From a virus, in the IMG/VR virus record IMGVR_UViG_3300045988_173694: a DNA stretch of 64,000 nucleotides; one strand, 5' to 3'. Made by a program: the position numbers and the translations under genes. Shown here piece by piece: positions 1 through 58,239 of this stretch (the first letter of the stretch is position 1; every line of letters begins with the position of its first letter). The notes beneath the pieces were generated by a model. That model was not told the origin of the DNA, did not search any database, and saw only the letters and a list, made by a program, of their open reading frames with translations.

Positions 1-8
1 CAAAAAAA

Positions 9-105
9 ATGTTGAGTGTTGAATGTTGAATGTTAAATTGCCTAACGGACTCAATGGCGCTAGCCTAATTCAACACTCAACATTCAACATTCAACATTCA
101 ACATT
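9..105. repeat. Heptamer-armed palindromic element (HAP) copy 1
   Basis: (TGTTGAA)n left arm, about 30-nt core TTGCCTAACGGACTCAATGGCGCTAGCCTAA, (TTCAACA)n right arm. Confidence 0.9.
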
Positions 106-109
106 GGCT

Positions 110-1393
110 TTAGCCGCGATAGAATACCGGAGCCAGCGAGCCTTTACAGTCAAAGAACTCCTTAGCCTTCTCCTCGATACCTAACTTCCGTATCATATCA
201 AAGTCATCATCGCTGCACTCTACACAGAACCTTCCGTTCTTCATGCCGATGAAGGAAATGCGGGAAACCAGTGATTTCTCAGCGTCGCCTATAATGAGCT
301 TGCAGAATGCCTTCCACTTATCGGTACCCTCGCCTACCTCGGTCTTAATCTTGGTGGATGCAGGCTGCACGTTCTTCTTAACATCGTAAGCCTTCGCATC
401 GAACAGCTCACCTTCAGAATATTTTCCTGCCTTATGCAGTTTGCCGAGCGGCGTATAGAAAACCTCAAAGGTGATATAATCAGGGTTGCCACGCTTTCTG
501 CCTTTAGGATAATGTTCCGTATAATCAAAGGTAATATCTATATCATTCTTCTTTGCCTGTGCCACCAGGTCAGCTTTTGCCTTATCCAGAACGTCCTTCT
601 TAAACTTAGAGTACTTAGCATACTGATAAACCTTTTCCTTCGTTTCCGGGTCTATCTCATAGCACCCCAGGAAGTCCTTCAGCTTCTCTACCGTAACCGA
701 TAAGGGGTCGCTCTGTCCCTTCTTGCGTGGGCGGTCCTTATTCTCCATCAGCCAGAGATAAACCCTCGGTGTTACTCTTCGCTTACTGGTCTTCGCTACA
801 CGCGCCATGTGCGGCACATATCCCTTGCTCAAGTCAAAGGCATAGTCGGCCACAAAATGATTGATGTTTAACTCGACAACACCCGAATAAACATCCTTGA
901 TGGTACCATCCTTGCCTACCCACGTTTTCTTGGGCAGCGAAATGCGGTCGAATACAGGGTAGAAGTCTGAAATCTTATCTTTCTTTACGAACACCCTCAA
1001 AGCGCCAATTTCTTCTACGATAGGAACCTTACCATCGGCAAACTCCTGAAACATTTCCTTGTAGTTGCTATGATTATCTACAAGTTCTGACATATCTATA
1101 CGGATATGAAGAGCTTCTCTCTTCTGTTCCTCAGATAGGAACGGAGATTTAGGATAAGTCTTTTCCTTATATCGCATCTGGTCGTAGTACTGGTTGATGT
1201 ACTCCTGCAACTTTGCGCTTACCTGCAACATAATATCCTGTTGCAGGAGTGAGAAGGTGCTACCCAGCGAAGCATAAGAGCATGGTGTCTTGATCCACCG
1301 CAAATTACAAAGCTGCTGTTCTGTTGGCTGGTTTTCCAAGTCACGGAAAGTAACCTGATTTTCATTTATTCGCTTGTCTTCTTTTGCGCCCAT
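110..1393 (-). CDS. Plasmid-type replication initiator (Rep_3/RepB-like)
   Basis: 427-aa ORF. The C-terminal half resembles iteron-binding Rep_3 initiators (YAKYSKFKKDVLDKAKADL...ITFDY...GRKRGNPDYITFEVF). It lies next to 22-bp iterons at 1522-1666. Confidence 0.7.
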   Translation of the reverse strand: MGAKEDKRINENQVTFRDLENQPTEQQLCNLRWIKTPCSYASLGSTFSLLQQDIMLQVSAKLQEYINQYYDQMRYKEKTYPKSPFLSEEQKREALHIRIDMSELVDNHSNYKEMFQEFADGKVPIVEEIGALRVFVKKDKISDFYPVFDRISLPKKTWVGKDGTIKDVYSGVVELNINHFVADYAFDLSKGYVPHMARVAKTSKRRVTPRVYLWLMENKDRPRKKGQSDPLSVTVEKLKDFLGCYEIDPETKEKVYQYAKYSKFKKDVLDKAKADLVAQAKKNDIDITFDYTEHYPKGRKRGNPDYITFEVFYTPLGKLHKAGKYSEGELFDAKAYDVKKNVQPASTKIKTEVGEGTDKWKAFCKLIIGDAEKSLVSRISFIGMKNGRFCVECSDDDFDMIRKLGIEEKAKEFFDCKGSLAPVFYRG

Positions 1394-1521
1394 AACTGTT
1401 ACTTATATATTTTCTTTCATTTTTTATATATACAGACATAATAAATAGTATCAGTATCAGTATAGAGACTTAAAAATCTCTCGAAATGCCGATAAACACT
1501 AAGGTTTCCGAAAAATCGAGG

Positions 1522-1666
1522 TTCCAAGAACTATACCTTTTGGTACCGAAAACTATACCCTTTGGTACCGAAAACTATACCCTTCCAAATTTTAGAACTT
1601 CGTACCAAGAACTATACCCTTTGGTACCGAAAACTATACCCTTTAGTACCGAAAACTATACCCTTC
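1522..1666. repeat. Iteron array (six ~22-bp direct repeats), putative oriV
   Basis: GGTACCGAAAACTATACCCTT-type units repeated head to tail. Two more copies at 1747-1768 and 1950-1976. Directly upstream of the Rep gene. Confidence 0.85.
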
Positions 1667-1719
1667 AGTAAAAGACTTTAGTAAGAAGGTAAAAGAGTTT
1701 AGTAAAATTTTACCTCAAA

Positions 1720-1809
1720 CTTAGCCACAAATGTAGTGACTTGTTAGGTACCAAGAACTATAACCCTCTTGTACCTTTTGGTACGAAAGTCACTACATTT
1801 GTGGCTAAG
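1720..1809. repeat. Perfect 21-bp inverted repeat flanking one iteron
   Basis: CTTAGCCACAAATGTAGTGAC (1720-1740) and its reverse complement (1789-1809). A third near-identical direct copy at 1927-1947. Confidence 0.85.
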
Positions 1810-2066
1810 TTTTTATCGTAACTATCTGAAAATCAATCATTAAACCTTTTGGTGCAATGAGGATTACATTAGTACAACGTATTTCCAAAGCATAAACGCT
1901 TATAAATCAGCGTTTTATGATATAAACTTAGCCATAAATGTAGTGAGTTGGTACCAAGAACTATACCCCTCGGTACTATTTCGGCACCTCAGAAGGTAAA
2001 AGACTTCAGTAAGATTTTACCTAAAACCACTTTTCAGTTTACCTTCAAATCTGACTTTTCGTTTAC

Positions 2067-2405
2067 CTACTCTTTTCCGAAATGATCCACGAAGTCCATA
2101 ACGGCCTGTGCTGCCAGGTCTTGAAGGCTCTTGTCGGTACAAGCCTTAATCTGCACCAGCTTGAAATAATACTCCATGGGGAGTATCAGCTTTACGGTCT
2201 TCGTACTCTTCATCGGTTTCATATCGACGGCAGGAGCAATGCGCTGTTCTGCTGCTGGCTGCTCTGCACTACTGTCCACAGGAGCAGGGACGTTCTGTTC
2301 CTGCTCTCTGCCCTGCTCCAGGATAAGTTTGTTTTCCTGAACAATAGGTGCATCATCGAAATCTTTATCAAAAGACTTAGCTTTCTTATTTTGTTTTACT
2401 GCCAT
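2067..2405 (-). CDS. Putative ParG-like ribbon-helix-helix partition adaptor
   Basis: 112 aa, immediately downstream of parA. The C-terminal VKLILPMEYYFKLVQIKACTDKSLQDLAAQAVMDFV has a strand-helix-helix pattern. Confidence 0.45.
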   Translation of the reverse strand: MAVKQNKKAKSFDKDFDDAPIVQENKLILEQGREQEQNVPAPVDSSAEQPAAEQRIAPAVDMKPMKSTKTVKLILPMEYYFKLVQIKACTDKSLQDLAAQAVMDFVDHFGKE

Positions 2406-2445
2406 AACTGCTAAAAATTAATCATTAATCACTAATCACTATCCC

Positions 2446-3381
2446 CTACTCCGGCATACTCTCAAGTATCTCCTTCGTAAGCTGCTCATAATCGATGCCT
2501 ACCCTGCAATAAGGCGCATACTCGAAAATGTCCTTATTCAGCGATTGCGCCTCTACCATTTTGGTATCTCTTCGGGTATAGGCATTGAACACATAATCGC
2601 CAAAGGTTTCAATAAGATAATGCTTAAATTTCTTCGTCGCCTTGGTCTGGTCGTTACTCATTACCATCAGTAAGCCACGCACAGCCAAATCCTCGTTCAG
2701 ATCCTCACGCGTTTCTTTGATGGCGTTGATAATTTCAGCAATACCTTTGGTTGCTAAAGGTTCCAACTGCACAGGCAGCACAGCACTCGATGCTGCGGTC
2801 AGCGCATTATAGGTAAGCAGTGACAAAGCTGGTGGGCAATCAATAAAGACGAAATCGAAAGCCTCAGTAATCTTCAGCATACCTTTATAGTTGGCATAAT
2901 CGCAGGATGTATCTCCAAAGCTGGCGTTGCAGTCTATCCCATCACTAGCCAAATCGCCACCGTCATCAGTCATCAGAGCCAGCGGTTTTGACAGCAACTT
3001 ATAGAGCGCTTTCCTCGGCACCGCTCTCTGATTCAGGAAAGGCTCAATAGAGATTAATTTTTTTGAAGCTGGAGCAAGATACACTCCTTCTCGCACCTGA
3101 TAGATAGGTACCTGCTTCTGCTCCACCAGTGCATCGTATACGGTAGGCAACCTTCTGTTTGCCGTTTCGCTCCATCCGAAGAGGAAGGAAAGCGAACTCT
3201 GAGGGTCCAGGTCGATAAGCAGGATGCGAGGCTTACGCTCCTTCCCTGCAACGTTCTGTCCGAAATGTCCCTTACCATAACGGCGCAAACCTGCCGCCAA
3301 ATTCTGTACTGATGTAGTCTTACCAACACCGCCCTTGTGATTGACAAAGGCAAGAACTTCTTTCAATCTATTTTCTGCCAT
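2446..3381 (-). CDS. parA: ParA/Soj-family partition ATPase
   Basis: Deviant Walker A VNHKGGVGKTTSVQNLA near the N-terminus, ParA-like length and a downstream small adaptor gene. Confidence 0.85.
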   Translation of the reverse strand: MAENRLKEVLAFVNHKGGVGKTTSVQNLAAGLRRYGKGHFGQNVAGKERKPRILLIDLDPQSSLSFLFGWSETANRRLPTVYDALVEQKQVPIYQVREGVYLAPASKKLISIEPFLNQRAVPRKALYKLLSKPLALMTDDGGDLASDGIDCNASFGDTSCDYANYKGMLKITEAFDFVFIDCPPALSLLTYNALTAASSAVLPVQLEPLATKGIAEIINAIKETREDLNEDLAVRGLLMVMSNDQTKATKKFKHYLIETFGDYVFNAYTRRDTKMVEAQSLNKDIFEYAPYCRVGIDYEQLTKEILESMPE

Positions 3382-3442
3382 AATCTTTATGATGTATTAA
3401 ACGTAAACTAATATATTTATTTCTAATTTCTAAACGCTGAAT

Positions 3443-3967
3443 AGTACCAAAGTACTAACGTACCGAAGTACTACGGTGCAAAAGTACTAAAAAATATTCA
3501 TTCTCACAAATAATTACCCTATTATTTTCTAGATTTTAATCATATTTAATTATTAGTATTTGTAATAGTACTTTAGTACTAAGGTGCAAACGTACCAAAG
3601 TACGAAAGCACCGAGGAACGAATGAACCAAAGTATCAAGGTACATTTGTACGTTGGTACGAAGGTTTATTTGTACGTTAGTACCAAAGTGTATTTGCACG
3701 AAAGTTTATTAGTACCAAGGTATAAATGTACGTTAGTACAAAAGTACAAACGTACCAAAGTGCAAATGTACTCATTTATCTTCTCATTTATCTTTTCATT
3801 TATCCTCTCATTTATCTTATCATATATGAGAACAGATGTATTAAAGTACCTAAGTACAAAAGTGCAAAGGTGTATTTGTATCTTTGTACGAGAGTACTAA
3901 TGTATCAAAGTACAAAGGTGCAAACGTACAATAGTACGAAAGTACTAAAGTACGAATGCACCTTTGC
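3443..3967. repeat. Centromere-like array of GTACNAAN 8-mers
   Basis: Dozens of phased GTAC(N)AA(N) octamers upstream of parA, for example GTACAAAAGTACAAACGTACCAAAGTGCAAATGTAC. An internal 12-bp TCATTTATCTTC x4-5 block lies at 3771-3826. Confidence 0.8.
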
Positions 3968-3971
3968 TAGA

Positions 3972-4003
3972 GAACCAGCGATAGAATCGCTGGGAACGGA
4001 AGT
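3972..4003. repeat. SL element copy A (GGACCAGCGATAGAATCGCTGGGAACGGAAG family)
   Basis: Hairpin CCAGCGAT-AGAA-ATCGCTGG with conserved flanks, followed by TTTTTACC repeats to 4050. Confidence 0.85.
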
Positions 4004-4053
4004 GGGTTAAGGTTCTTTTTACCTTTTTACCTTTTTACTTTTTTACCTTTAAA

Positions 4054-5046
4054 TTAGAACTCCACCGTGCTCTGCTCTTCCCCCCACGCATCATTCAGCG
4101 TGAGCTGAAAGGTAGGCTGGCGGTTATAGAAGGAGCCGCTTATCATCGTAACATGATTGCGCTGCAGGGTGATACCCGATAACTTAAACGAGGTATAAGG
4201 CTCAGTACTGCCCTTGCGGTCCATGGTGAATGTAATATCGGTGGTGTAACCTTCCTCGGGTACCAGGAAGTAATAGAAGAAAGGAGCAGATGTCTTGCCG
4301 GCACACTTCGTAACATCTAAGATACGCTGGTTAGATACCTTACCTATAGCGGAAAAACTCTGCCAGTCCCACTGCTTATATTCATCTATCTGAAACCGCA
4401 GGGTACTGCAATCTTCCGGAAACTTACTCGTGTTTTTTACGGACAGTTTAGCGATGATACGCTCCAACTGGATATTGATGCTCTGGTTCTGCCCAACGCC
4501 TATGCTCACGTCCTGCACGGCTCCGAAGCTGTCAGAAGTCTTGCTGCTCGTCAGTACAGCAGGGGCAGCAGCGTCCGCAGTCATCGCAAAGGCAGTATTA
4601 TCTGCGAGGTTCCATAATGAGCCGTCAGCCGACTGTAGGGTAGGGGTTTCGCTCCTCGTAGCTATCACCTTCAGCGTATGATCGCCATAATCAAAACTCA
4701 TGGTAGGTTCGGCGAAGTCCTCGGCATCGGCAGACTGGTGCAATACCTGGAGCAGCTTTTTCGTTGCCTTGTTGTAATCGAAGATGTAGAGGTCAGTCAT
4801 CGCCTTGCCGTTGGCAACCAGTTCGGCACGCGTGATAGGGTAGGCGAATTGTCGGGTAGACTGGCTCACGCTCACGTCATCGCCTTCTGGCGAAGTAAAC
4901 CGCAGTTTCACCGTAGCCTTGTCAGCCATCTGCTGGCTGCCTCCGTCCACTGCCTCGTCCACATACTCGGTGCATGAGGTGTTCATCATCATGCACGCTG
5001 CCATCATCGCAAAGGTGGTGGCAAACAAAAACTTTTTCGTTCTCAT
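4054..5046 (-). CDS. Putative surface lipoprotein
   Basis: 330 aa. Signal peptide plus lipobox (FATTFAMMAACMMMNTSC). Confidence 0.6.
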   Translation of the reverse strand: MRTKKFLFATTFAMMAACMMMNTSCTEYVDEAVDGGSQQMADKATVKLRFTSPEGDDVSVSQSTRQFAYPITRAELVANGKAMTDLYIFDYNKATKKLLQVLHQSADAEDFAEPTMSFDYGDHTLKVIATRSETPTLQSADGSLWNLADNTAFAMTADAAAPAVLTSSKTSDSFGAVQDVSIGVGQNQSINIQLERIIAKLSVKNTSKFPEDCSTLRFQIDEYKQWDWQSFSAIGKVSNQRILDVTKCAGKTSAPFFYYFLVPEEGYTTDITFTMDRKGSTEPYTSFKLSGITLQRNHVTMISGSFYNRQPTFQLTLNDAWGEEQSTVEF

Positions 5047-5198
5047 AAGCCAAAAATTTTAAAGTTGTTATAGTTATATTTTAAAGCTCTATTTTCTTTT
5101 GCATCGGCGAAACTCAGTGATATTTCGCCGATGCTATAACGTAGAAATTCCTATTCCATCAGGTTCGGATCTTTATCGTATTTGCTGGCGGCTTCCTG

Positions 5199-9165: not shown

Positions 9166-9531
9166 TTATTGATTATTAGCTTTTGCCTCCAAAGCTATAA
9201 CAGGCGTTCCGTCTGTCTTATATAGCATTCTTACTCGTACCCATACATACCGCCCCTTCAGCCAGAAGGCTTCGTGTTCGTCCTGCCACTCTCCCGTATA
9301 TCCTCGGTTTTCCAAGGTATCGCGGGTCTTGTCGGTGATATTGTCTAGGTCGTAGGCTAACACGCCCATCGCCTTCAATTCGATGGCAACCGCAATTTTT
9401 ACCTCCTGCGGTGTTCGTGGATAGTCTTGATCTGAACAATCATGCACACCCATTAACTTGTCTATATTGATAATAGATGTAAGCAAGGATTGGATTTCTA
9501 CAAAATTCAAATTAAAGGAAATTGTTTTCAT
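9166..9531 (-). CDS. Hypothetical protein
   Basis: 121-aa ORF preceded by the L1 leader. Confidence 0.6.
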   Translation of the reverse strand: MKTISFNLNFVEIQSLLTSIINIDKLMGVHDCSDQDYPRTPQEVKIAVAIELKAMGVLAYDLDNITDKTRDTLENRGYTGEWQDEHEAFWLKGRYVWVRVRMLYKTDGTPVIALEAKANNQ

Positions 9532-9572
9532 ATTGCTTGCGCTTAACCGTGATGCGCCTAGGGCTGAATGTG
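9532..9572 (-). promoter_or_regulatory. L1 conserved 5' leader hairpin
   Basis: CACATTCAGCCCTAGGCGCATCACGGTTAAGCGCAAGCAAT followed by ATG. Confidence 0.7.
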
Positions 9573-9573
9573 A

Positions 9574-9975
9574 TTACTTATTCTCTTTATAGATATTCTC
9601 CTGGTCCTCGATAGCCTTCTCCAGCGTCCAACCTACCTTGGGATAGATACCCGCGCCCAGACCAGTGTTGAAGTTAACGTAATAATTTTCGCCATCCTCG
9701 CGAACTGTAATCTTGGTACCATTATGGTCAATATCCTGTCCTTCGTTCTCGAACAACTCCCAGCCGGTAGAAACAAGAGAAAGAATGTGTTCGCCATCGG
9801 TGGCGAAATCCTCATCATCATAACTGATGCTTTCAGAATCACCAGTATATACCCATCCGTTCTCCTTGCAGATGCCACGAACCAACTCGCAGCAATCATC
9901 CTCCGGATTCTCCTCCTGGTAGGCTGTCAAAAATACCTTGAGATCATCTAATGTTTTAATGTCTTCTTTCTTCAT
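9574..9975 (-). CDS. Acidic hypothetical protein
   Basis: Track ORF 9574..10086 shortened to MKKEDIKTL. That ATG is directly preceded by an L1 leader, and the longer form would overlap the promoter at 10056-10087. Confidence 0.6.
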   Translation of the reverse strand: MKKEDIKTLDDLKVFLTAYQEENPEDDCCELVRGICKENGWVYTGDSESISYDDEDFATDGEHILSLVSTGWELFENEGQDIDHNGTKITVREDGENYYVNFNTGLGAGIYPKVGWTLEKAIEDQENIYKENK

Positions 9976-12483: not shown

Positions 12484-13194
12484 CTATTTTTGAGGATTCC
12501 CTGATACGATACGCACGCTATAATAAGGCGTGATAAACGGATATTTCACTTCGTTTATGTAAAACGTTGCCGTTGGTTTACTCATCACCAAAGTGTCCTG
12601 GCAGATAACGACGCCGTTCATACCGTGTGCCATCATGTTCAGGGCGCACATCTTACATGCCAGCGGATCTGAATCCTGGGCAATATATTTATAAGTTCTA
12701 CCAACTGAAGGATCAGGGCTGCTCATCTTTGCGAAATGAGAAAGAAGAAGGCGGCCGCTACCTGCTGCACAATCATTTACCATTTTACCCGAAATAACGG
12801 GGCTAGAAGCCTGTTTTTCTTTCGAGCCTATAATATCACTCACCAGGTCAGACACACTCTTAGGCGTGAAAAATTGCCCTGTCTGAGAAGCTTTGCCGCG
12901 TGTTAGATACATATCCTCATAGAGAATGCCAAAAGCATCGAGCCAGGTGCCCTTCTGGAGTGCCGTGCTAACATCTACCAGCCAGTTAGTAGCCAGCAGC
13001 CCGAAATCAGGCTTTTTGCTGATACGTTCATCGAACCAGTTTTTCAAGCCGTCTGCACCTTTGCCCTTGAATGCCTCCACGCTGAACAAATCAAGAAGGA
13101 AGTCGCAAAAATCACTCAGTGCCATTTCGTGTGGCCGGCCATCCTTCTTTGCCTGGCGGCTCAGAATATCTACATACAATTTGCTGTTTATCAT
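12484..13194 (-). CDS. N6-adenine methyltransferase-like protein lacking motif IV
   Basis: GQFFTP (motif X-like) and VNDCAAGSGRLL (motif I) are present. No NPPF/Y-type motif; the ORF ends about 60 aa after motif I-III. Confidence 0.55.
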   Translation of the reverse strand: MINSKLYVDILSRQAKKDGRPHEMALSDFCDFLLDLFSVEAFKGKGADGLKNWFDERISKKPDFGLLATNWLVDVSTALQKGTWLDAFGILYEDMYLTRGKASQTGQFFTPKSVSDLVSDIIGSKEKQASSPVISGKMVNDCAAGSGRLLLSHFAKMSSPDPSVGRTYKYIAQDSDPLACKMCALNMMAHGMNGVVICQDTLVMSKPTATFYINEVKYPFITPYYSVRIVSGNPQK

Positions 13195-16641: not shown

Positions 16642-16688
16642 AACTTTAATTTTTTATTTGTTTATACTTTGTTTCTGTTTTACGTTTG

Positions 16689-16720
16689 CAAAGGTAATAC
16701 TTTTATTTGTTCCGTGCAAA
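16689..16720 (-). promoter_or_regulatory. Bacteroidota-type promoter for the 16.6-to-10.4 kb array
   Basis: Minus-strand TTTG-N20-TACCTTTG (plus strand CAAAGGTA 16689-16696, CAAA 16717-16720). Confidence 0.6.
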
Positions 16721-16895
16721 TAATTTCCGCAAAAAGTTTATATTTTCCTTTATTTTTAACCGTTAGTTATAAATAAACACCTTAAATTTACATATATTTG
16801 CAAATAAATTTATTTGTTACGTGTTTTTTTTAGTTTGCGCGGGATAATTTCTTATTATATAGTATACCTTATTATATATAGGGAAAAAATAAAAC

Positions 16896-17267
16896 GGTGC
16901 AGCCTGGTATCTCGTGGGTGCGTTCCTCATCTCGGGGGTGCAGTCTGGTATCTCGTGGGTGTGTTCCTCATCTCGTGGGTGCAGCTTGGTATCTCGTGGG
17001 TGCGTTCCTCATCTCGTGGGTGCAGCCTGGTATCTCGTGGGTGCGTTCCTCATCTCGTGGGTGCAGTCTGGTATCTCGTGGGTGTGTTCCTCATCTAGTG
17101 GGTGCAGTCTGGTATCTCGTGGGTGCGTTCCTCATCTCGTGGGTGCAGCCTGGTATCTCGTGGGTGTGTTCCTCATCTCGTGGGTGCAGCCTGGTATCTC
17201 GTGGGTGTGTTCCTCATCTAGTGGGTGCAGTCTGGTATCTCGTGGGTGCAGCCTGGTATCTCGTGGA
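16896..17267. repeat. Tandem array, 41-bp unit x9 (two ~20.5-bp half-units each)
   Basis: Unit starts at 16896, 16937, 16978, 17019, 17060, 17101, 17142, 17183 and 17224. Half-units are GGTGCAGCCTGGTATCTCGTG and GGTGCGTTCCTCATCTCGTG. Confidence 0.95.
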
Positions 17268-17601
17268 GGCGGGGGCATATATCCAGACGGATCCAGGCAG
17301 GCGGGCAGGGGACAAACGTCTCAGGGCGGCGGGGGTCTCGCGGCTGAATGAAGGTTCTCGGGTTTTCCCAGAGATTGGGATTTCTCTAATTATCAATTAT
17401 TTATCTTCTCCTCTCGGGCGCTAAAAACAAAATGTTATCTCTTGTAAAACCTTAAATGCCAATAGTTTATAGGGGATTTAAAATTATTCAAAAATAATTT
17501 ATACTATCTGAAATCTTAAATAAAAAATACCTAAAATATATACTATCTCATCAAAAAATATATAGAAAAATAAATAAATATATAACTTTTAACTAGAAAT
17601 A

Positions 17602-17633
17602 TTTGCAAAAACCAAATAAATATATTACCTTTG
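17602..17633 (+). promoter_or_regulatory. Consensus Bacteroidota promoter for the XRE gene
   Basis: TTTG (17602-17605) - N20 - TACCTTTG (17626-17633). Confidence 0.65.
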
Positions 17634-17670
17634 CACTGAAAATTAAAGAATATATATAACTAAAGAGATA

Positions 17671-18108
17671 ATGGAAGGAAATAATAAACCAAAATCGGAA
17701 ATCAATCTCCGTAAACTGATGCAGAAATTAGGCTTGGGCACAAATGCTTTTGCCGAGAAATGCGGCATGTCATCGCAATCGATGTCGCAGTTCCTCCGCA
17801 ACAAGTCGTTAACGACAAACACCATCTATCGCATAGCCACAGCTTTGGATATAGACCCTCGTGATATGTTCTTCCCGACAGAGGAGAAGAATGATCTTTT
17901 CTCGAATGCTGATAAGAAAGAGCATGAGGGCGAAACTCTGAATGCTACGCTGGGGGGCGATTTGCCGGAAGGTGTCACCTGCAGAGACGTGAAGTTTGTG
18001 CAGCAGGCAGAAGAAAATCAGCAGCAGATGATTCAGACTTCCACCTTCTGCCCTCACTGCGGCAAGAAAGTAAGAGTGGGAGTGGTACTACTATCGGGGG
18101 AATGTTGA
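17671..18108 (+). CDS. XRE-family HTH regulator with C-terminal zinc-ribbon-like CxxC
   Basis: INLRKLMQKLGLGTNAFAEKCGMSSQSMSQFLRNKSLTTNTIYRIATALDIDPRDMF is a typical HTH_3 domain. C-terminal CPHCGKKV. Confidence 0.75.
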   Translation: MEGNNKPKSEINLRKLMQKLGLGTNAFAEKCGMSSQSMSQFLRNKSLTTNTIYRIATALDIDPRDMFFPTEEKNDLFSNADKKEHEGETLNATLGGDLPEGVTCRDVKFVQQAEENQQQMIQTSTFCPHCGKKVRVGVVLLSGEC

Positions 18109-18175
18109 GTGTTAAATGTTGAATTGCCTACGGACTCAATGGCGCTAGCCTAATTCAACATTCAACATTCAACAT
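18101..18175. repeat. HAP copy 2
   Basis: Same arms and core. Overlaps the XRE stop codon. Confidence 0.9.
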
Positions 18176-18216
18176 AATGATTGATAATGTATAACTCTTA
18201 AAACAAAAATGAAGAA

Positions 18217-19059
18217 ATGAAAAAGAACTTTTTAATGAAGATGAAACGTTCCATGATGGCTATCTTCTCGGTGGTAGCCATGGGAATGATTACGGCTTCG
18301 CTCACGGCTTGCAGCAGCAGCGAGGATGAGAGCGAGAAGGAGGCGGCTAAGGTGAAGGAATATCTTGCCGGAAACGAGTGGACCATCAACAGCACCAGAG
18401 GTACTTATTTCTACTATAAGAACCACATGGTTTACTATGAGGATGGTGGCGATCTGACTCCAGGCGGTTATGTTATCGAGCCTAACACTGCCTTCGGCTA
18501 CTGGCAGATGGAGGGCGACAGGCTTACTACCCGCTTCGAGGTGGGCACACCGAAAAGCTTCAATATCAAGAATCTGCTGAACGAAACTATCTCGGGGGTG
18601 CATCTACAGGAGAGCAACAAGCTTACGGGCAGCGGGACATCGGCGAGCATTGATATGCGTCCGCTGATTGTGGGCACCTTCGCCAACGGCAATGAATGCC
18701 AAATGAGATGCAGCAGAACGCTGGATGATGTTTCTGACGAGACGGACCACGATGTGGCGATAAGGGGCACATGGTATTGCGTCATCACCATTACCAAGGA
18801 CGGAAAGAAAGATCAGCGTATGGGTTCCATGACATTTAATGAGGACGGCACCATGCACATGGTGATAGAGGGTAAGAAAGACTTCACTACCACCTATTCC
18901 ACCAAGAACGGAAAGGTTACTATCAATGGTTATCTGGTAGAGAACCATGTGGCCACCTTCTATTATACGCACCATTACTCTTTCATCAATCTCTATAACT
19001 GCGAAAACGGCTATCTCTCGTCGATATGGAGAAAGAACAGGGATGAAGCATATCAATGA
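18217..19059 (+). CDS. Putative lipoprotein
   Basis: Signal peptide plus lipobox (GMITASLTACSSSEDE). Confidence 0.6.
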   Translation: MKKNFLMKMKRSMMAIFSVVAMGMITASLTACSSSEDESEKEAAKVKEYLAGNEWTINSTRGTYFYYKNHMVYYEDGGDLTPGGYVIEPNTAFGYWQMEGDRLTTRFEVGTPKSFNIKNLLNETISGVHLQESNKLTGSGTSASIDMRPLIVGTFANGNECQMRCSRTLDDVSDETDHDVAIRGTWYCVITITKDGKKDQRMGSMTFNEDGTMHMVIEGKKDFTTTYSTKNGKVTINGYLVENHVATFYYTHHYSFINLYNCENGYLSSIWRKNRDEAYQ

Positions 19060-19075: not shown

Positions 19076-19182
19076 ATTGAGTGTTGAATGTTGAATGTTG
19101 AATGTTGAATGTTGAATTGCCTGACGGACTCAAGGGCGCTAGCCTAAATCAACACTCAACACTCAACATTCAACACTCAATT
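19076..19182. repeat. HAP copy 3
   Basis: Longest arms. Followed by a T-run on the plus strand, so probably a terminator for the lipoprotein gene. Confidence 0.9.
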
Positions 19183-22447: not shown

Positions 22448-23929
22448 TTAATCCAAATCATAAGTATATCTGCCACCTTTGTCTACTCTAAAGAGGAAAG
22501 TATCATTAACCGGCAGCAGATTCTTCTCCCTTACTTCTTTGAGCTTCAGTCTTATGAGCTTCGAAGACGTACAGAACTTATATTCTGTTCCAGGAGCATC
22601 TTTCATTTCGTACAGAACCCAACATCGGCCGCTCTTGCCGTTCACTTCAACATCATCTTCAAAGTCTAATATATTGATGATGGAGTGATTCTGACACAAC
22701 ATCGTCTGATTATACTCTGGTACAGAAAATATACGTTTTCCGTTCTTGTCTACCGAGTATTTCGGTGATACAATTCCAATATCCTTAAAACTCATATTCT
22801 TTTTTCTTTTAAATTCGTTTTTATAATTTTCGGGGTAATCTCCAACAATCTTCTTCCAAAGATGCTTGCACTTGCCCCACCTTGCTATTCCCCAATACGC
22901 TCCGATAAGTTCCTGTCGCCTTTTACGGCTCTTAACCCTACCGAAAGACTTTGCCGCCTTAACCTTTGTCCGTCTGCGCATCCTTATGTTATTTCGAGAA
23001 TAGACGTAACCGACAAAATCTAGATTTCTGCCTTTCACGCCTTTCTCTTCGTCATGCAGCTCCGCTACGTGACCGCTAGCTTTCAGACAGAACCCATATT
23101 GATTGCACCAGTAATCCAATCTTCCGAGTAATCGAATAGCTTCTTCCTTTGTTTCAGCGAAGAAGGTAATATCGTCACAATGCCGATGATAGCCTTTTGC
23201 ATGCTCGATATGTACCATAGCGTAGTCTACCAAGCTCAATGCAAGATTGCCTAGCATCTGACCGATAGGATTACCGAGTGTTACACCTCGCCTGCATCCA
23301 AGGTACTTCATTCCACCCTTATCTGCCCAAATGCAGTACTTCTGCTTGCGCTCGTATTCTTCTATCATCAGAGGTTCAATCTCTACAGAATAATCGAGCA
23401 TGGTCTGCTCTATCAAGTCGATGAATAAATCATCGTCTATATACCGCCTGAGTATTATAAGCAGAACAGGATGAGGTATTGTCAGATAATACTTTCTGAG
23501 GTCTCCTTGCCCATAATAAGCCCATTTCGGATGCCTTCTGATAGCTCGTTGTGTTCTCAATGCACCGAATACTTGACCTTTACCTTTTCTGCCAGCACTC
23601 GAATCGTATATAAGCACTCGTTCAACTATCGGTTCGAGCACTATTTTGATAGCGTGAAAGAGAACATTCCAAGGGTCGAAGTGCATAGGGCATATCTTTC
23701 TTGCCTTATTCTCAGATACTATGTCAACCTCCTTATATTCCTTCTTAGGATAAATGCCGAGAATGAGCATATTCTGTATGCGGTCGATAATCTTATCCTT
23801 ATCTCGGATATATCTCCTAGCGAACCATGTGTTCTTATCATCTAACGCATTATAGGCATCATCACCGCCCTGTTCCAATGTTTCCCTCTTTACGAGTTCA
23901 TTCATCAGATTCTTTACCTTTGCTGTCAT
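22448..23929 (-). CDS. DGR reverse transcriptase (atypical, with C-terminal extension)
   Basis: RT motifs RKICPMHFDPWNVLFHAIKIVLEP, GDLRKYYLTIPH, GVTLGNPIGQMLGNLAL and HCDDITFF (where YxDD is expected). 220 nt downstream of the TR on the same strand. Confidence 0.85.
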   Translation of the reverse strand: MTAKVKNLMNELVKRETLEQGGDDAYNALDDKNTWFARRYIRDKDKIIDRIQNMLILGIYPKKEYKEVDIVSENKARKICPMHFDPWNVLFHAIKIVLEPIVERVLIYDSSAGRKGKGQVFGALRTQRAIRRHPKWAYYGQGDLRKYYLTIPHPVLLIILRRYIDDDLFIDLIEQTMLDYSVEIEPLMIEEYERKQKYCIWADKGGMKYLGCRRGVTLGNPIGQMLGNLALSLVDYAMVHIEHAKGYHRHCDDITFFAETKEEAIRLLGRLDYWCNQYGFCLKASGHVAELHDEEKGVKGRNLDFVGYVYSRNNIRMRRRTKVKAAKSFGRVKSRKRRQELIGAYWGIARWGKCKHLWKKIVGDYPENYKNEFKRKKNMSFKDIGIVSPKYSVDKNGKRIFSVPEYNQTMLCQNHSIINILDFEDDVEVNGKSGRCWVLYEMKDAPGTEYKFCTSSKLIRLKLKEVREKNLLPVNDTFLFRVDKGGRYTYDLD

Positions 23930-24150
23930 TTTGTTTTGTATTTAAAGCCTATTGCTTTTTTGCCGCTTTGCCCGTGACTTTGTTCTGCTCGTACAACTGA
24001 GCCGATTACTTCACCACGCTTGCTCTCCATTCAGCGAATACAGAGAGCCTTTCCGCTGTTATTTTCTGACTAGGCTATTGAAACCCACGTCAAGGTTTGA
24101 GAGACTCGCTTCTTCATATATCCATACCCCATAGATTATTGATTCAGCGA

Positions 24151-24260
24151 TTATAAATAAGTGAGACGCACACCGTAGTTCGTATTGCGATTGCCGAAGT
24201 CGTTATTCGAATTGACGTAGAACGAGCCGCAGTTAAGCGCATTCCTGGCGTTACCACCAA
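24151..24260 (-). repeat. DGR template repeat (TR)
   Basis: 110 bp, gapless match to 24411-24520. All 15 differences lie at TR adenines (coding-strand sense). Confidence 0.9.
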
Positions 24261-24360
24261 AGAGGAGCAAAATGTCTCTCGCCACCTTTTTTATTTATTT
24301 TTCTTTATTCTCTATTGACACCATTTTTGCTTCGGTGGAGCAAGCTCCACATCGGGTGTC

Positions 24361-24379
24361 GCAGACCCTACAGGTCTGC
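24361..24379. other. GC hairpin at the 3' end of the DGR target gene
   Basis: GCAGACC-CTACA-GGTCTGC, straddling the stop codon 24368-24370. Confidence 0.7.
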
Positions 24380-25642
24380 TCCGTTTACGTATGTCGGATT
24401 TCCGCAAAAAGCGAGACGCACACCGAAGCTCGGATTGCGACAGCCGAAGCCGTCACCCGAATTGACGCAGAACGAGCCGCAGAGAAGCGCATTCCAGGCG
24501 TCACCACCAAAGAGGAGCAACTGCCCAGTGCTGTTTGCCCATGAGTAGTCACAATAGTAGTTTGCGCTGTTCGAATTATCAACGTTGATATTCTTAGGCA
24601 TGATGTCGAAGAAGTCTCCGAGAACAAGGCTCAGTACACCGCCACTTCTAGTGTTACGTGTGAACGTGCGATAATCACCGACAGGATGACCAGTAAGCTC
24701 AGAAGCAGAAGGCATTCTGTTGCCTTTGTAGACGAAGGCTTCCGAACCAGTCTGACCGCTATTGTTGCTACTACCGAAGTAGATGCCTTGTATCATCTGC
24801 CAATACCATCCCCAAGGGTTCTCGATACCGAAGAGGTTCACATGGCATGCGTCAGCGTTTCCTGTTAACTCAGCCAAGCTGATTTTACCATTATTATCTC
24901 CAAGGCTCTTAGTAGCACCCGTTGTAAGACCATTAACCTTATCCCATAAATTAGCACTACCTGTAGGACCACAACCGAACTTAGCCTGTGAGTTGCTGTT
25001 TTCGCTCTCCCACAAAACGAGCATAGGAATAATCTTCAATGTCTCATAGTCGAGCAGACCGAAGTTCTTACCGTTGTTACGTGCATAAGTAAAGAAATCA
25101 CTGATTGATATATTGTTCGATACGCCAAGTCCACTACGGCTTACAAGCTTATTGTTAACAATACTAGCCATGTATGCGCCAAAGGTAGGATGGTCGATAT
25201 AATGCTCAGAGATAGGATAAGTAGAACCCCACAGGATATTGCATCCTGCTGACGCATCGTACTTCACAAGATAGTAGAGACGATGAGGGGTATGGAACAT
25301 GATATGACCCTTAGTCTCATCAACGGTTGTGCCATCCTCGAATACAGCAGAGTTGCTACGAGACAATTTAGCCATTCTTCCATCGTTAGTAAGCAAATAT
25401 CGACCGAGTGATGATTTGAACTCATTCCACTTTGTCTGATTACCGCAAACTCCCCATTGCGTATCGTCTGTCTCTTTAAGATATGTTCCCCAAGCAATAA
25501 GCGAGAGGTCAAGCTGGTTAGTACTGATAGAGTTAGCCAAGTCAGACAGCTTGATACGTCTGAGAGAGCCGCCAACCTCTATCAATAAGGTATCACCCTT
25601 AACCATTGATGATACCGATGCTACAGTTGCAAGATTTTTCAT
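24368..25642 (-). CDS. DGR variable target protein (putative receptor-binding tail protein)
   Basis: The VR encodes the C-terminal FGGDAWNALLCGSFCVNSGDGFGCRNPSFGVRLA, which resembles the C-type-lectin-fold ends of DGR targets. Located in the fibre module. Confidence 0.85.
   Translation of the reverse strand: MKNLATVASVSSMVKGDTLLIEVGGSLRRIKLSDLANSISTNQLDLSLIAWGTYLKETDDTQWGVCGNQTKWNEFKSSLGRYLLTNDGRMAKLSRSNSAVFEDGTTVDETKGHIMFHTPHRLYYLVKYDASAGCNILWGSTYPISEHYIDHPTFGAYMASIVNNKLVSRSGLGVSNNISISDFFTYARNNGKNFGLLDYETLKIIPMLVLWESENSNSQAKFGCGPTGSANLWDKVNGLTTGATKSLGDNNGKISLAELTGNADACHVNLFGIENPWGWYWQMIQGIYFGSSNNSGQTGSEAFVYKGNRMPSASELTGHPVGDYRTFTRNTRSGGVLSLVLGDFFDIMPKNINVDNSNSANYYCDYSWANSTGQLLLFGGDAWNALLCGSFCVNSGDGFGCRNPSFGVRLAFCGNPTYVNGADL
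24411..24520 (-). repeat. DGR variable repeat (VR)
   Basis: See TR. Ends 40 nt before the stop codon. Confidence 0.9.
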
Positions 25643-30269: not shown

Positions 30270-30353
30270 ATGTTGAGTGTTGAATGTTGAATGTTGAATT
30301 AGCCTAACGGACTCAACGGCGCTAGCCTAATTCAACATTTAACATTCAACATT
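30270..30353. repeat. HAP copy 4
   Basis: Arms plus core AGCCTAACGGACTCAACGGCGCTAGCCTAA. Confidence 0.9.
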
Positions 30354-31404
30354 AATTAAAGGGGTCGCCGTTAATACCTAGGGTGGCGGTAAAGGAAACG
30401 GAATACATATTCCTGTTGGTATCGTCCTTAATGGTAAGCTCATCTTCAAGATTGATGGTGCAAGGAAGCCAGGCATCATTCGCTTTCAGCCATACGTGCT
30501 CAGACATCAGGAACTCATGGAGATACCACTGCTGCCATGCCTTGGTAAGCGGGTCGCTCTGATAGAGCCAGCTTTCACGATCATTCTGCTTCTTGATAGC
30601 GGCACGGGAGAACTGATTGAAGGTTTCCTGAATAGCTTTCGTATATTGCGTGCTCTCGACATTCATCTTCTGAGAGTAGGATTTCGGCACGCTGATACTC
30701 TCCAGGCAACCGAAGCGGTTAATGAAACGGAAGGTGGTACGGTCTTCAGCTTCAGAGGACGGTAGAGCATAGATAGGGTGCCCCTGAATGCTCTGCGCAC
30801 CTTCCTTCGTGATTTCCTGCTCCCTAGATACAGGGGCGGTCAGTGAGCTGCTGGTAGCTAAGTTCTGCCCTGCGCTATAGGAGACTGGATAAACAAAGCT
30901 CTCGCCTACAACGGCTATTTCGTGGGTATCAGTCGGTTTGCAGGAGAGAATGGTGACAGCCTTCGTTACGCCCGATTTCAGGCGCTCTATATCGCTGAAG
31001 GCTCCGGCTATACAGCGGAGGTTGGTACTCCCACCCGATACGGGTTTCTGTGGGTAATAGACTTCACCCACATTGGTATGCACCTCACCGTTGTTATCCA
31101 TATACTCATCGAAGGCTTTGATATACCAACTTACCACTGGGTAGGTGGATGGTGTAGCGGTATACTTGTAGCTATCCAGCGTAATGCGAAGAGCAGAGGA
31201 AATATCGAGCGATACATCTCTTCCCTCGGTGGTAACAGGAATGGTAAGCTTATTGGTTTCGTAACTGCCCGTGCCATCATCAAAATGCACTTCTACGATG
31301 ACACGATGAAAAGATGGCTTTGTAGCCACGGAAGGGGTGATGGTAAAGGTTATCGGGTTTCCTGCAAAGACAGAACCCGATGTGAGATTGATTTTCTGTG
31401 CCAT
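30352..31404 (-). CDS. Putative virion structural protein
   Basis: 350-aa ORF directly downstream of the ACP gene. Confidence 0.5.
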   Translation of the reverse strand: MAQKINLTSGSVFAGNPITFTITPSVATKPSFHRVIVEVHFDDGTGSYETNKLTIPVTTEGRDVSLDISSALRITLDSYKYTATPSTYPVVSWYIKAFDEYMDNNGEVHTNVGEVYYPQKPVSGGSTNLRCIAGAFSDIERLKSGVTKAVTILSCKPTDTHEIAVVGESFVYPVSYSAGQNLATSSSLTAPVSREQEITKEGAQSIQGHPIYALPSSEAEDRTTFRFINRFGCLESISVPKSYSQKMNVESTQYTKAIQETFNQFSRAAIKKQNDRESWLYQSDPLTKAWQQWYLHEFLMSEHVWLKANDAWLPCTINLEDELTIKDDTNRNMYSVSFTATLGINGDPFN

Positions 31405-31761: not shown

Positions 31762-32967
31762 TTAAAAAGCCTTTGAGATGACAAATGAGGAGTTTGTACC
31801 CCCAAAACCAAAGGCATTACAGAGGATATGATGAGGATCATAATACTTAGGGCGCATCACCAGGTTAAGATGAGAGAAGGCGTTCTCCTCGGTGGTGGCT
31901 GCATGAAACAGACGGCCATAAGTGAACATGATTACGGCTTGCACAGCTTGCGATACACCTGCCATCCAACACTCGTGGCCAGTCATACCCTTTGTAGCTA
32001 CTACGTTCGGACAGATAGGGAAGATATTCTCTATCGCCTTCGCCTCGGCTTCATCGCCCATCGTGGTACCTGTAGCATGAGCAAGTACTACGTCTATCAT
32101 GCCTTCATCCAATCCTGCGTTCTCGATAGCATTCAGCATAGATACTTCTTCCTGATAACTATCAGGGGTAGTGATAGCTTTTCCATTGGTAGAGAAGCCA
32201 TAGCCGGAAAGGGAAGCGAATGAATGCACCTTCTCTTCTTTCAATCGAAGACTATCCGATGATTCGAGGATGATGCAGGCTGCGCCACCAGATGGTGCCA
32301 ATCCGTTTCTGCCTTTACCAAACGGCTGTACTTTATCAGGTGAGAAGACACCGAGGGCATCGAAAGCCTCCATACAATAATTACTTGTTGTTTCCTGCGC
32401 GCCAATCACAATTACCATTTCAGTCTGTTTGCTATCGAGCAACATCTTTGCCAGTCCGATGGCGTGGCCACCTCCTGCACAGGCTGCGCTTACGGTGAGC
32501 GATAAACCATGAATGCCGAGGATAGTAGCCAGGTTCATGCTGATAGTGGAATTAAGTGAACGAAACAGGGTTGTTACCGGAAGTCTACGATTAGAGATGT
32601 TCTTTTTTACGTGAGAGACCACAACTTTGCTTTCATAACATTCTGAGTCGTTACTTACGATAAGTGAAACATTATGGTTTTCAAGAAACTCCTTACTGAC
32701 CTTTGCTTTCTTCAGCGCCTCGAATACCGCATCGAGCACATAAAAACCATGTGCAGGCATACATTCGTATTGCGCATGGGTAAGTATATCCAGACACTCT
32801 GCTTTCCAACTAGGTACATTGCCACATAAATCGGAATTGTATTTATCGCGGCATTCGTCGTGATGTAATCCGCATTTACCCTTATAGAGGTTCATGGCTA
32901 CTTCTCTGGTACTTCTGCCTAGGGCAGAATGAATACCGGTTCCGGTAATCAAAATTTCTTTATTCAT
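31762..32967 (-). CDS. Beta-ketoacyl-ACP synthase (KAS I/II type, Cys-His-His)
   Basis: TVSAACAGGGHAIG (active-site Cys), AHATGTTMGD (His), GMTGHECWMAG (His) and NAFGFGGTNSSFV. Confidence 0.8.
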   Translation of the reverse strand: MNKEILITGTGIHSALGRSTREVAMNLYKGKCGLHHDECRDKYNSDLCGNVPSWKAECLDILTHAQYECMPAHGFYVLDAVFEALKKAKVSKEFLENHNVSLIVSNDSECYESKVVVSHVKKNISNRRLPVTTLFRSLNSTISMNLATILGIHGLSLTVSAACAGGGHAIGLAKMLLDSKQTEMVIVIGAQETTSNYCMEAFDALGVFSPDKVQPFGKGRNGLAPSGGAACIILESSDSLRLKEEKVHSFASLSGYGFSTNGKAITTPDSYQEEVSMLNAIENAGLDEGMIDVVLAHATGTTMGDEAEAKAIENIFPICPNVVATKGMTGHECWMAGVSQAVQAVIMFTYGRLFHAATTEENAFSHLNLVMRPKYYDPHHILCNAFGFGGTNSSFVISKAF

Positions 32968-58222: not shown

Positions 58223-58239
58223 AAAACAGATGGTTTCTT

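Follow-up and report, generated by a model that had tools for sequence, protein, structure and literature searches.

Positions 110–3967 of the window (the whole 64,000-nucleotide stretch of IMG/VR record IMGVR_UViG_3300045988_173694 that was analysed) raise the question of why a tailed phage should carry genes of the kind that replicate and segregate plasmids. The original prediction, that the phage is maintained outside the chromosome as a plasmid-prophage, is well supported by our inference from the sequence, and the core features on which it was based are all present and far in excess of chance. We consider it likely that the segment is a two-part plasmid replication and partition cassette on a tailed phage of ~103 kb, inherited as a low-copy plasmid prophage. 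The phage-plasmid lifestyle is known in itself but has received little documentation in the Segatella/Prevotella group.

Replication initiator and candidate origin

The rep ORF (110–1393, minus strand, 427 aa) encodes a predicted iteron-type replication initiator. The protein matched PHROG 4402 ‘replication initiation protein’ (E = 4e-8), and a profile of its family matched the R6K π protein (2nra; E = 1.1e-5), the match falling in the WH2 domain of π. When the AF2 model of Rep (pLDDT 76.5) was compared with the PDB using Foldseek, all 44 matches at E ≤ 0.001 were π, RepE54 or Rep–iteron complexes (target TM ~0.6–0.66; best E 5e-8). Model and family profile together suggest the tandem winged-helix (WH1-WH2) fold of Rep_3 initiators at residues ~30–320, followed by a conserved C-terminal domain at residues ~345–427. 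The window Rep reached neither Pfam gathering cut-off, scoring 20.1 bits against Rep3_C (PF21205; cut-off 21.1, E = 7e-4) and 12.8 bits against Rep3_N (PF01051; cut-off 22.4, E = 0.16), while among distant family members at E ≤ 0.01 Rep3_C was matched by 25 of 40 and Rep3_N by 21 of 40. The proposed Rep_3-like initiator therefore holds, with scores just below the Pfam Rep3 cut-offs, and its sequence places it as a divergent relative of Rep_3 initiators, outside membership by Pfam's own threshold. Among annotated proteins, those closest to it initiate the replication of Segatella plasmids found in cultured strains (32–36% identity), and tblastn against GenBank phages returned no match. Rep resembles R6K π, mini-F RepE and related Rep_3 initiators in the WH1-WH2 fold and in the tandem 22-bp iterons adjoining its gene, but identity to them is ~13% and the C-terminal domain (~80 aa) is absent from them. 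This domain is possibly like DnaA domain I; in some family members a DnaA_N domain proper sits at its position.

Eight 22-bp iterons lie 128–580 bp upstream of rep. The six expected in phase are present on the plus strand, though as two triplets 15 bp apart (1521–1586, with units GTACCGAAAACTATACCCTTTG, and 1602–1667) rather than as one run, and the first copy is degenerate; five of the triplet copies have three or fewer mismatches to the consensus, with none expected from 100 shuffles. The two outlying copies were also confirmed, iteron 7 (1748–1769) being bracketed by an inverted repeat and iteron 8 (1951–1972) lying beside a third copy of the repeat arm (1924–1949). This inverted repeat (1717–1742 and 1787–1812, the whole element spanning 1717–1812) is perfect, as originally described, but its arms are 26 nt long rather than 21, and both contain the DnaA-box-like sequence TTAGCCACA. 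A 37-nt direct repeat occupies 1684–1720 and 1991–2027. On the iteron side of the rep start codon, an A+T-rich stretch (1394–1470; 80–88% in a sliding measure of A+T content) is the probable site of the rep promoter and a candidate for the DNA-unwinding element. Just 3′ of the rep stop codon lies a large hairpin (8–105; stems made of the heptamer repeats AATGTTG and CAACATT, loop TTAGGCTAGCGCCATTGAGTCCGT). It belongs to a dispersed element with six copies and probably acts as a terminator.

Comparison of ~65 related viral contigs showed that the iterons covary with the initiator. Window-type iterons number 6–12 at loci with a Rep identity of 93% or more and 0–2 in a class of loci with ~39% Rep identity, which carries 6–9 copies of another iteron at all loci but one. 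Iteron sequence thus follows Rep type across the ~65 loci and the pairing is specific, so that the locus has the tandem, cognate-specific iterons of 17–22 bp adjoining rep that characterise Rep_3 replicons. In the mechanism that we propose, Rep, as an initiator of the π/RepE kind, would bind the eight iterons just upstream of its own gene and presumably melt the adjacent A+T-rich stretch, leading to origin firing, with the conserved C-terminal domain recruiting the helicase.

Partition genes and centromere-like field

The original prediction of a ParA-type ATPase is borne out by the parA gene (2446–3381, minus strand, 311 aa), whose product matched Pfam AAA_31 (E = 1.6e-35) and PHROG 164 ‘ParA-like partition protein’. 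The Walker A motif KGGVGKT lies within NHKGGVGKTT at residues 14–23, and the Pfam and PHROG matches begin at residues 6–10 of 311; a deviant Walker A motif with no N-terminal DNA-binding domain is the configuration of small type Ib partition ATPases. The best NCBIfam model was ParA_partition, at 75.8 bits far under its equivalog cut-off of 180, and the best annotated ParA matches (38–39% identical) are on the same Segatella plasmids as the best Rep matches.

A gene for a predicted small centromere-binding protein (2067–2405, minus strand, 112 aa) starts 41 nt past the end of parA. Its product begins with a basic tail, continues through a linker rich in Pro, Glu and Gln, and ends in a predicted ribbon-helix-helix (RHH) domain. 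The protein alone had no match in Pfam, but its family profile matched the RHH protein ORF56 of pRN1 (2k9i; E = 1.3e-5), in line with the RHH-like adaptor first proposed, and the C-terminal strand-helix-helix pattern is conserved among 11 diverse aligned homologues. A small putative RHH protein encoded just downstream of parA is again the arrangement of type Ib systems. By eye, the small protein seems to differ in its N-terminal motif from one ParA type to another.

The centromere-like repeat field, put at ~520 bp in the original prediction, extends over ~530 bp upstream of parA (3436–3967) and comprises ~49 units of 8 bp, each a GTAC box and a 4-nt spacer (29 with exact GTAC), in three blocks (3444–3491, 3568–3772 and 3838–3965) that are interrupted by a 12-bp repeat of 4.8 copies (3771–3827). 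GTAC occurs at 54 per kb in the field vs 3.1 per kb in the whole window, and the parA promoter is expected within the field or next to it. All 15 loci with a class-A RHH protein have 9–30 GTAC boxes upstream of parA, whereas all 38 class-B/B2 loci have only 0–5 and none of the 38 has a GTAC array; ParA is ~67–69% identical in both groups. The repeats upstream of parA therefore follow the RHH class of the small protein and not ParA identity, and a repeated site beside the operon, specific to the binding protein, is a further feature of type Ib partition.

A close parallel in design is ParF–ParG–parH of plasmid TP228, which likewise combines a small Walker ATPase with a small protein whose N-terminal tail is flexible and whose C-terminal domain is of the RHH type. 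The parH centromere lies upstream of the operon and consists of many 4-bp boxes with 4-bp spacers. The TP228 box is ACTC rather than GTAC and the phage field is much longer; the phage ParA, at 311 aa, has insertions, and ParG (1p94) aligned weakly to the family profile of the 112-aa protein, over the RHH domain (E = 0.64). By analogy with this type Ib system, the RHH protein would coat the GTAC boxes at their 8-bp spacing, its basic tail may stimulate the ParA ATPase, and ParA would move sister copies apart on the nucleoid.

Genome state and competing explanations

The element is a tailed phage of human-gut Segatella/Prevotella with a genome of 103–104 kb, present in IMG/VR and labelled ‘Siphoviridae sp.’ in NCBI. 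Its phage genes include a large terminase, tail proteins and a diversity-generating retroelement (DGR) that targets the tail fibre; the head protease (PHROG 53) and tape measure reported earlier were both recovered, the latter through a full-length homologue above the PhageMin_Tail cut-off. The AF2 model of a 433-aa capsid candidate has a pLDDT of 40.8, and no endolysin was recognised among the ORFs scanned, which included only some of the small ones. Virion and packaging genes thus share one replicon with the Rep/ParA cassette, as in phage-plasmids such as P1, N15 and SSU5, and this synteny recurs in ~65 contigs. In a scan of 185,579 species genomes, the element occurred only as short fragments in metagenome bins, with no cultured isolate.

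Two related full-length contigs close on themselves, with terminal overlaps of 99 bp and 77 bp at different points, so that the circularisation check suggested with the original prediction came out in its favour in these relatives. A circular assembly fits an episome but is not decisive, as it is equally expected of a circularly permuted, terminally redundant virion genome. No integrase or recombinase family was detected by Pfam and PHROG scans that covered all ORFs of at least 250 aa, and some of the shorter ones, both within the window and, for the remainder of the genome, on a close relative (contig 150239). The absence of a visible integrase, first noted for the window, therefore extends at this scope to the whole element. 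The suggested search for host junctions found no host flanks in the stretches read, and the IMG/VR contigs of Rep relatives, among those listed, do not exceed 110.7 kb. One database entry reports a 181-kb contig with a related gene.

Persistence as a phage-plasmid is the most likely reading because a complete plasmid-style replication and partition cassette is combined with the lack of an integrase; with a circular genome, this would allow inheritance as a low-copy plasmid prophage. The episomal state in the host cell is inferred from these sequence features.

The alternative that survives best, although we judge it unlikely, is a virulent or pseudolysogenic phage in which Rep and the iterons form a lytic origin and its origin-binding protein, with ParA and the RHH protein positioning or segregating genomes only transiently in a carrier state, short of true plasmid inheritance. 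In favour of this reading, the phage encodes much of its own replication machinery (a beta clamp, an exonuclease, a primase-like protein and a 1226-aa protein with, by eye, a zinc-finger-like CxxC and a Walker A motif but no profile match). The constant C-terminal domain of Rep beside variable DNA-binding domains also recalls the lambda O protein, which binds the lytic origin ori-lambda, and the one candidate for a repressor or lysogeny switch is a Cro/C1-type HTH gene at 17671–18108. A full type Ib system with its long centromere-like field, however, is not known to serve a cycle that is purely lytic, and stable Segatella plasmids have a basic replicon homologous to this one in Rep, in ParA and in overall layout. 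Moreover, replicon and partition specificity diversify on a constant backbone, as incompatibility between co-resident, stably inherited elements would be expected to select.

Far less probably, the element integrates, either as a prophage or as an integrative element that carries phage genes, and its integrase or junctions lie beyond the part examined. Reading part of the genome from a relative, the partial scan of ORFs below 250 aa and the existence of the 181-kb contig count for this reading, but no Phage_integrase, Resolvase or Recombinase match appeared in any scan or among the recorded Pfam matches of flanking genes, dozens of independent contigs cluster at 93–110 kb with differing start points, two have exact terminal overlaps, and host genes are absent from every flank examined. 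Misjoining of a small plasmid replicon to a phage contig, which the resemblance of the replicon and partition genes to those of Segatella plasmids might suggest, is very improbable, since the same ParA–RHH–iteron–Rep block with the same backbone neighbours occurs in ~65 contigs of IMG/VR as well as in ENA and Logan assemblies from different assemblers, with phage backbone on both flanks.

Relation to known elements and cassette exchange

The maintenance cassette has a close counterpart in the basic replicon of Segatella copri plasmids (NZ_CP085934.1, 59 kb, from DSM 18205; NZ_CP137558.1; NZ_CP137560.1), where gene order and parts are as in the phage cassette. In the DSM 18205 plasmid, ParA is followed by a 99-aa protein with a C-terminus that is RHH-like by eye, by six to eight 22-bp repeats that stop directly ahead of rep, and by Rep; the plasmid Rep (~430 aa) matches the phage Rep over nearly its full length, C-terminal domain included. 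The iteron and upstream-repeat sequences of these plasmids are nevertheless unlike those of the phage, NZ_CP137558.1 differs in carrying a relaxase, MobC, integrases, transposases and ErmG, and the 433-aa phage protein had no match in the plasmid collection.

Phage P1 is a tailed phage that persists as a low-copy plasmid, with an iteron-type initiator (RepA, incC/incA) and ParA-driven partition and without chromosomal integration. Like P1 and P7, relatives of the present phage differ from one another in the specificity of their replicons and partition systems. Partition in P1 is of type Ia: its ParA is large and has a DNA-binding domain at the N-terminus, its ParB is an HTH protein, and parS is bent by IHF. 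The present phage has a type Ib-like system made up of a small ParA, an RHH protein and arrayed 4-bp boxes, and it is unrelated to P1 in both host phylum and phage backbone. For Carjivirus communis (the prototypic crAssphage), a Bacteroidales gut phage of ~100 kb, extrachromosomal persistence as a phage-plasmid without an integrase has been proposed on the basis of a pair of RepL-like genes together with expression data and dynamics in culture (PMC10983915). In the passages considered, ParA appears only in a description of phage P1, and the word ‘iteron’ is absent from the article's text. The case made here comes instead from the sequence of a complete Rep_3-like/iteron and ParA/RHH/centromere cassette.

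Both the rep and the par cassettes have been exchanged on a backbone that is ~99% identical. A backbone protein keeps 99% identity in contigs where Rep identity is down to 39%, and the nucleotide alignment to one relative stops at 2068 and picks up again at 5137. At this breakpoint between the rep and par cassettes lies a relic iteron (2047–2067), a single copy of the iteron of the other Rep type (AAATCTGACTTTTCGTTTACC). The swapped par cassette (2069–5136) also contains a gene for an Mfa/fimbrillin-like lipoprotein (4054–5046, minus strand), which is not a maintenance function.

We raise tentatively, as a possibility that may well not hold, that these genomes belong to a widespread, unrecognised family of ~100-kb Segatella/Prevotella phage-plasmids in which rep and par cassettes are interchangeable incompatibility modules, repeatedly swapped so that iterons and binding-protein genes remain as relics at the breakpoints, and in which the initiator joins variable iteron-binding winged-helix domains to a constant, DnaA domain I-like C-terminal module that recruits the helicase. 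To our knowledge, the latter combination is not known from studied plasmid initiators. If this is true, the swapping would be driven by competition among related elements in the same host lineage.

Replication and partition cassette

Five elements occupy positions 110–3967 of the window, with leftward transcription throughout: the rep ORF, encoding an initiator of 427 aa (110–1393), a repeat-rich intergenic region of 673 bp, an ORF for a candidate ribbon-helix-helix (RHH) centromere-binding protein of 112 aa (2067–2405), the parA ORF, encoding an ATPase of 311 aa (2446–3381), and, upstream of parA, a repeat field of ~530 bp (3436–3967). The original prediction of a Rep_3-like initiator held for profile and fold, although not at the Pfam Rep3 cut-offs, which Rep narrowly misses (Rep3_C 20.1 vs 21.1 bits; Rep3_N E = 0.16). 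Rep matches PHROG 4402 'replication initiation protein' (E = 4e-8), a profile of 21 Rep homologues matches the R6K pi protein (E = 1.1e-5), and every one of the 44 PDB matches of its AF2 model (pLDDT 76.5) at E ≤ 0.001 is pi, RepE54 or a Rep–iteron complex. The Rep family numbers 482 members in a search of 1.84 billion representative proteins, with Rep3_C in 25, Rep3_N in 21 and a DnaA_N domain in 6 of 40 distant members. The C-terminal domain of Rep (~80 aa, residues ~345–427, window 110–370) is highly conserved, including conserved cysteines, and is 78–87% identical in a 485-aa relative matching just the last 21–25% of the window Rep; it gave no PDB-sequence or Pfam match. Because of this conservation, the presence of a true DnaA_N domain at the same position in other family members and a weak similarity to DnaA domain I (hhalign E = 1.7e-4, probability 49%; Foldseek 4tps_B, TM 0.56), a helicase-recruiting role is suggested for this domain, as a lead rather than a finding.

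The predicted ParA Walker-A ATPase and small RHH-like adaptor were both borne out. ParA matches AAA_31 (E = 1.6e-35) and PHROG 164 and carries the motif KGGVGKT. The 112-aa protein alone has no Pfam match; its homologues share a basic tail at the N-terminus, a linker of low complexity and, at the C-terminus, a conserved strand-helix-helix pattern, and their family profile matches the RHH protein ORF56 of pRN1 (E = 1.3e-5) and can be aligned to ParG (E = 0.64).

Upstream of rep, six 22-bp direct repeats (iterons) form two triplets (1521–1586 and 1602–1667) set 15 bp apart, with extra copies at 1748 and 1951, so that the number of copies predicted from sequence was right while their continuous phasing was not. 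Five copies match the consensus GTACCGAAAACTATACCCTTTG with ≤3 mismatches (0 expected in shuffled sequence), and the consensus has no match elsewhere in the 64-kb window. The seventh copy is flanked by a perfect 26-nt inverted repeat (1717–1742 and 1787–1812), given earlier as 21 bp, a third copy of whose arm sits just before the eighth iteron, and the stretch from the rep start codon to the iterons is 80–88% A+T. All copies of the arm contain DnaA-box-like 9-mers (1721–1729, 1800–1808 and 1928–1936), two being TTAGCCACA (one mismatch each to TTATCCACA) and one TTAGCCATA (two mismatches); these are possible origin sites for host DnaA, and are by themselves not statistically meaningful. The field upstream of parA, predicted as a centromere-like array of ~520 bp, is made up of 8-bp units in strict register, grouped in three blocks (~49 units, 29 with an exact GTAC), and GTAC density is 54 per kb in the field vs 3.1 per kb window-wide. 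It is broken up by 4.8 copies of a 12-bp repeat, CTCATTTATCTT (3771–3827), and 4.5 copies of an 8-bp repeat, CTTTTTAC (4015–4050), lie between it and a lipoprotein gene. A sigma-70 promoter scan gave results at or below chance, the sigma-70 model being ill-suited to Bacteroidota, an Rfam scan of the window found no match, and a nucleotide search with window 1–4100 found nothing in GenBank phages or PLSDB plasmids beyond the heptamer hairpin and a short repeat.

In the proposed mechanism, Rep would bind the iterons and open the A+T-rich stretch, while the RHH protein would coat the GTAC field and activate ParA through its N-terminal tail, the two systems together allowing the phage to be passed on as a low-copy circular plasmid prophage. 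The partition system resembles ParF-ParG-parH (type Ib), whose parH centromere likewise consists of 4-bp boxes with 4-bp spacers.

Covariation of proteins and repeats across related loci

A scan of IMG/VR yielded 70 loci with a Rep relative, mainly on contigs of 88–110 kb, and the order ParA, small protein, repeats, Rep is kept in nearly all of them. Cassettes are mosaic, combining for example a Rep 98% identical to that of the window with a ParA of 67%, or a Rep of 80% with a ParA of 99%. Where Rep is at least 93% identical (11 loci), there are 6–12 window-type iterons and 1–3 iterons of an alternative sequence (GGTAAACGAAAAGTCAGATTT); at ~79–80% (4 loci) the counts are 1–6 (a variant differing by 2–3 nt) and 0–3, at ~38–40% (34 loci) they are 0–2 and, in all but one locus, 6–9, and at 27–37% they are 0–3 and 0–2, with other repeats in the loci inspected; as the loci are mutually related, neither these counts nor those of GTAC boxes are independent events.

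The repeats upstream of parA are predicted by the RHH-motif class of the small protein. Within 680 nt upstream of parA, GTAC boxes number 9–30 in the 15 loci of class A (that of the window), 5–12 in the 10 loci of class C and 0–5 in the 38 loci of classes B and B2, which have different repeat words with 8-bp periodicity in most, and each class is found with several Rep and ParA types. Since ParA is ~67–69% identical to the window ParA in class-B/B2 loci and many class-A loci alike, repeat type tracks the DNA-binding protein and not the ATPase. This is how a centromere and its binding protein are expected to behave, and such covariation in many natural recombinants provides a specificity map for RHH–centromere and Rep–iteron recognition. 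A second GTAC array (six boxes with 8-bp spacing, 49410–49457) lies between a LysR gene and a 170-aa gene. It was considered as a second site for the partition protein and rejected, since most close relatives share it irrespective of RHH class, with no covariation, and it is not part of the swapped partition system.

Traces of exchange are visible at the cassette borders. The backbone protein encoded 5 kb downstream of rep (1226 aa) keeps 98–99% identity in contigs with a Rep of just 39% identity. In the nucleotide alignment with contig 150239, a close relative, window 108–2068 (rep and iterons) is 95% identical, the alignment ends precisely where the small gene has its stop codon and it resumes at 5137; the partition cassette, together with its fimbrillin-like lipoprotein gene, has been replaced as a unit. 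A single iteron copy of the other Rep type persists at the breakpoint (2047–2067) as a relic, and three related loci (L032, L036 and L038, ~9388–9654) contain, past a class-C small-protein gene and before rep, a stretch that shares 71–73% identity with the class-A binding protein of the window and is apparently a relic gene. Both are probably scars of recombination.

Plasmid homologues and the phage genome

A tblastn search with Rep found no match among GenBank phages. PLSDB contains four matching records, all from Segatella or Prevotella, the best three covering 93–96% of Rep at 32–36% identity; the four best ParA matches are Segatella plasmids (38–39% identity), three of them the best three Rep records. 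NZ_CP137558.1, a record matched by Rep and ParA, is a conventional plasmid that carries a relaxase, MobC and ErmG. In S. copri DSM 18205, a 59-kb plasmid shows the layout of the window too: ParA, a 99-aa protein (its C-terminus RHH-like as judged by eye), six to eight 22-bp repeats, which end directly before rep, and Rep. This shared homology and layout show the module to be a basic replicon of plasmid type that belongs to the host genus. Judged from these plasmid homologues, Segatella is the best available candidate for the host; a genome scan for the host returned only fragments in metagenome bins, possibly mis-binned. Prevotella and Segatella are the dominant bacteria of many human guts in non-industrial settings, yet there are few cultured phages of these bacteria and few genetic tools for them.

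The portion of the phage genome beyond the window was read from contig 150239 (positions 7471–61954). A 667-aa protein matches annotated large terminases by tblastn (E = 1e-36), with no PHROG, Pfam or PDB-sequence match, and a 2013-aa tape measure scores above the Pfam cut-off for PhageMin_Tail; the window ORF at 61537–63681 (714 aa) is the truncated end of a 1623-aa version of the tape measure. Tail proteins match PHROG 5302 (7.5e-36) and a LoVEphage tail collar fibre (46% identity), and an S49-like head maturation protease and a holin-like gene are present. The protease, tape-measure and tail-fibre genes noted originally were recovered, while the capsid candidate (433 aa, 51456–52757) has no PHROG, Pfam, NCBIfam, PDB-sequence or phage tblastn match, and its AF2 model (pLDDT 40.8, shallow alignment) is confident only in a C-terminal beta-rich domain. 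A diversity-generating retroelement (DGR, 22448–25642) is aimed at the C-terminus of a 424-aa tail-fibre-like gene, with a reverse transcriptase on the minus strand (22448–23929), a template repeat at ~24211–24270 and, within that C-terminus, a variable repeat at ~24461–24520; the two repeats differ at 5 positions in a 60-nt comparison, all A in the template.

Several other features were observed. Six dispersed copies of a hairpin element (8–105, 18119–18189, 19113–19176, 30300–30366, ~45871–45894 and ~56109–56132) have stems of heptamer repeats (AATGTTG/CAACATT) and a conserved loop, TTAGGCTAGCGCCnTTGAGTCCGT (0 expected by chance). The element has no Rfam match, and part of it also matches gut phage contigs and a plasmid of S. 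copri DSM 18205; those copies that were compared with ORF positions lie at gene ends, which suggests terminators. An opposite-strand block (16642–19059) with a Cro/C1-type HTH protein (17671–18108, plus strand) and a local GC-skew reversal is a candidate lysis–lysogeny switch region. Phage-atypical accessory genes (4054–5046, 31762–32967, 49458–50363, 12484–13194, 42709–44010 and 57296–58848) include the Mfa/fimbrillin-like lipoprotein of the partition cassette, a beta-ketoacyl synthase, a LysR regulator, ThyX and a guanylate kinase. They also include two DNA methyltransferases in the window, and two more ORFs outside it were judged methyltransferase-like by eye.

Probable phage-plasmid lifestyle

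The reading of this ~103-kb phage as a phage-plasmid, as originally proposed, is well supported by the Rep and ParA cassette, the phage genes, circular assemblies and the lack of any integrase found, and an episomal state is predicted. Close relatives in NCBI are metagenome assemblies labelled 'Siphoviridae sp.' or 'Caudoviricetes sp.'. Independent assemblies of 103,208 and 103,272 bp have different start points, a check for circularisation was positive for two IMG/VR contigs, whose ends overlap exactly by 99 and 77 bp and fall at different points of the genome, and contigs with a Rep relative listed in IMG/VR reach 110.7 kb at most. A circular assembly fits a permuted, terminally redundant virion genome too. 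The absence of an integrase from the window extended to the remainder taken from contig 150239: scans of ORFs of at least 250 aa found no integrase, resolvase or large serine recombinase, and no integrase or recombinase families are on record for the called flank genes. A database contig of 181,166 bp, well above the ~103-kb genome, carries P0077, a relative of the 433-aa protein, and might represent a concatemer, an assembly error or an integrated copy.

The main rival, that the cassette serves a lytic or carrier-state cycle, is unlikely, since the partition system is complete and has its homologue in stable Segatella plasmids, and since specificity has diversified in the way that incompatibility would select. 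The preferred phage-plasmid reading likens this phage in function to P1, as an iteron initiator and ParA partition are carried by a tailed phage without an integrase, whereas the Segatella plasmid replicon is closest in parts. The literature searched yielded general surveys and a proposal of crAssphage as a phage-plasmid (PMC10983915), and no description of this lineage as one; the large extrachromosomal elements of Segatella (PMC10635906) are different from it. Phage-plasmids are a known kind of element, with hardly any documented in this host group.

If a common phage lineage lives as a plasmid, this would help to explain long-term phage persistence without integrases. The phage would then also be a vehicle for accessory genes (the fimbrillin-like lipoprotein, LysR regulator, ketoacyl synthase and several methyltransferases), and its relatives would offer naturally diversified replicon and partition cassettes for compatible Segatella/Prevotella vectors.
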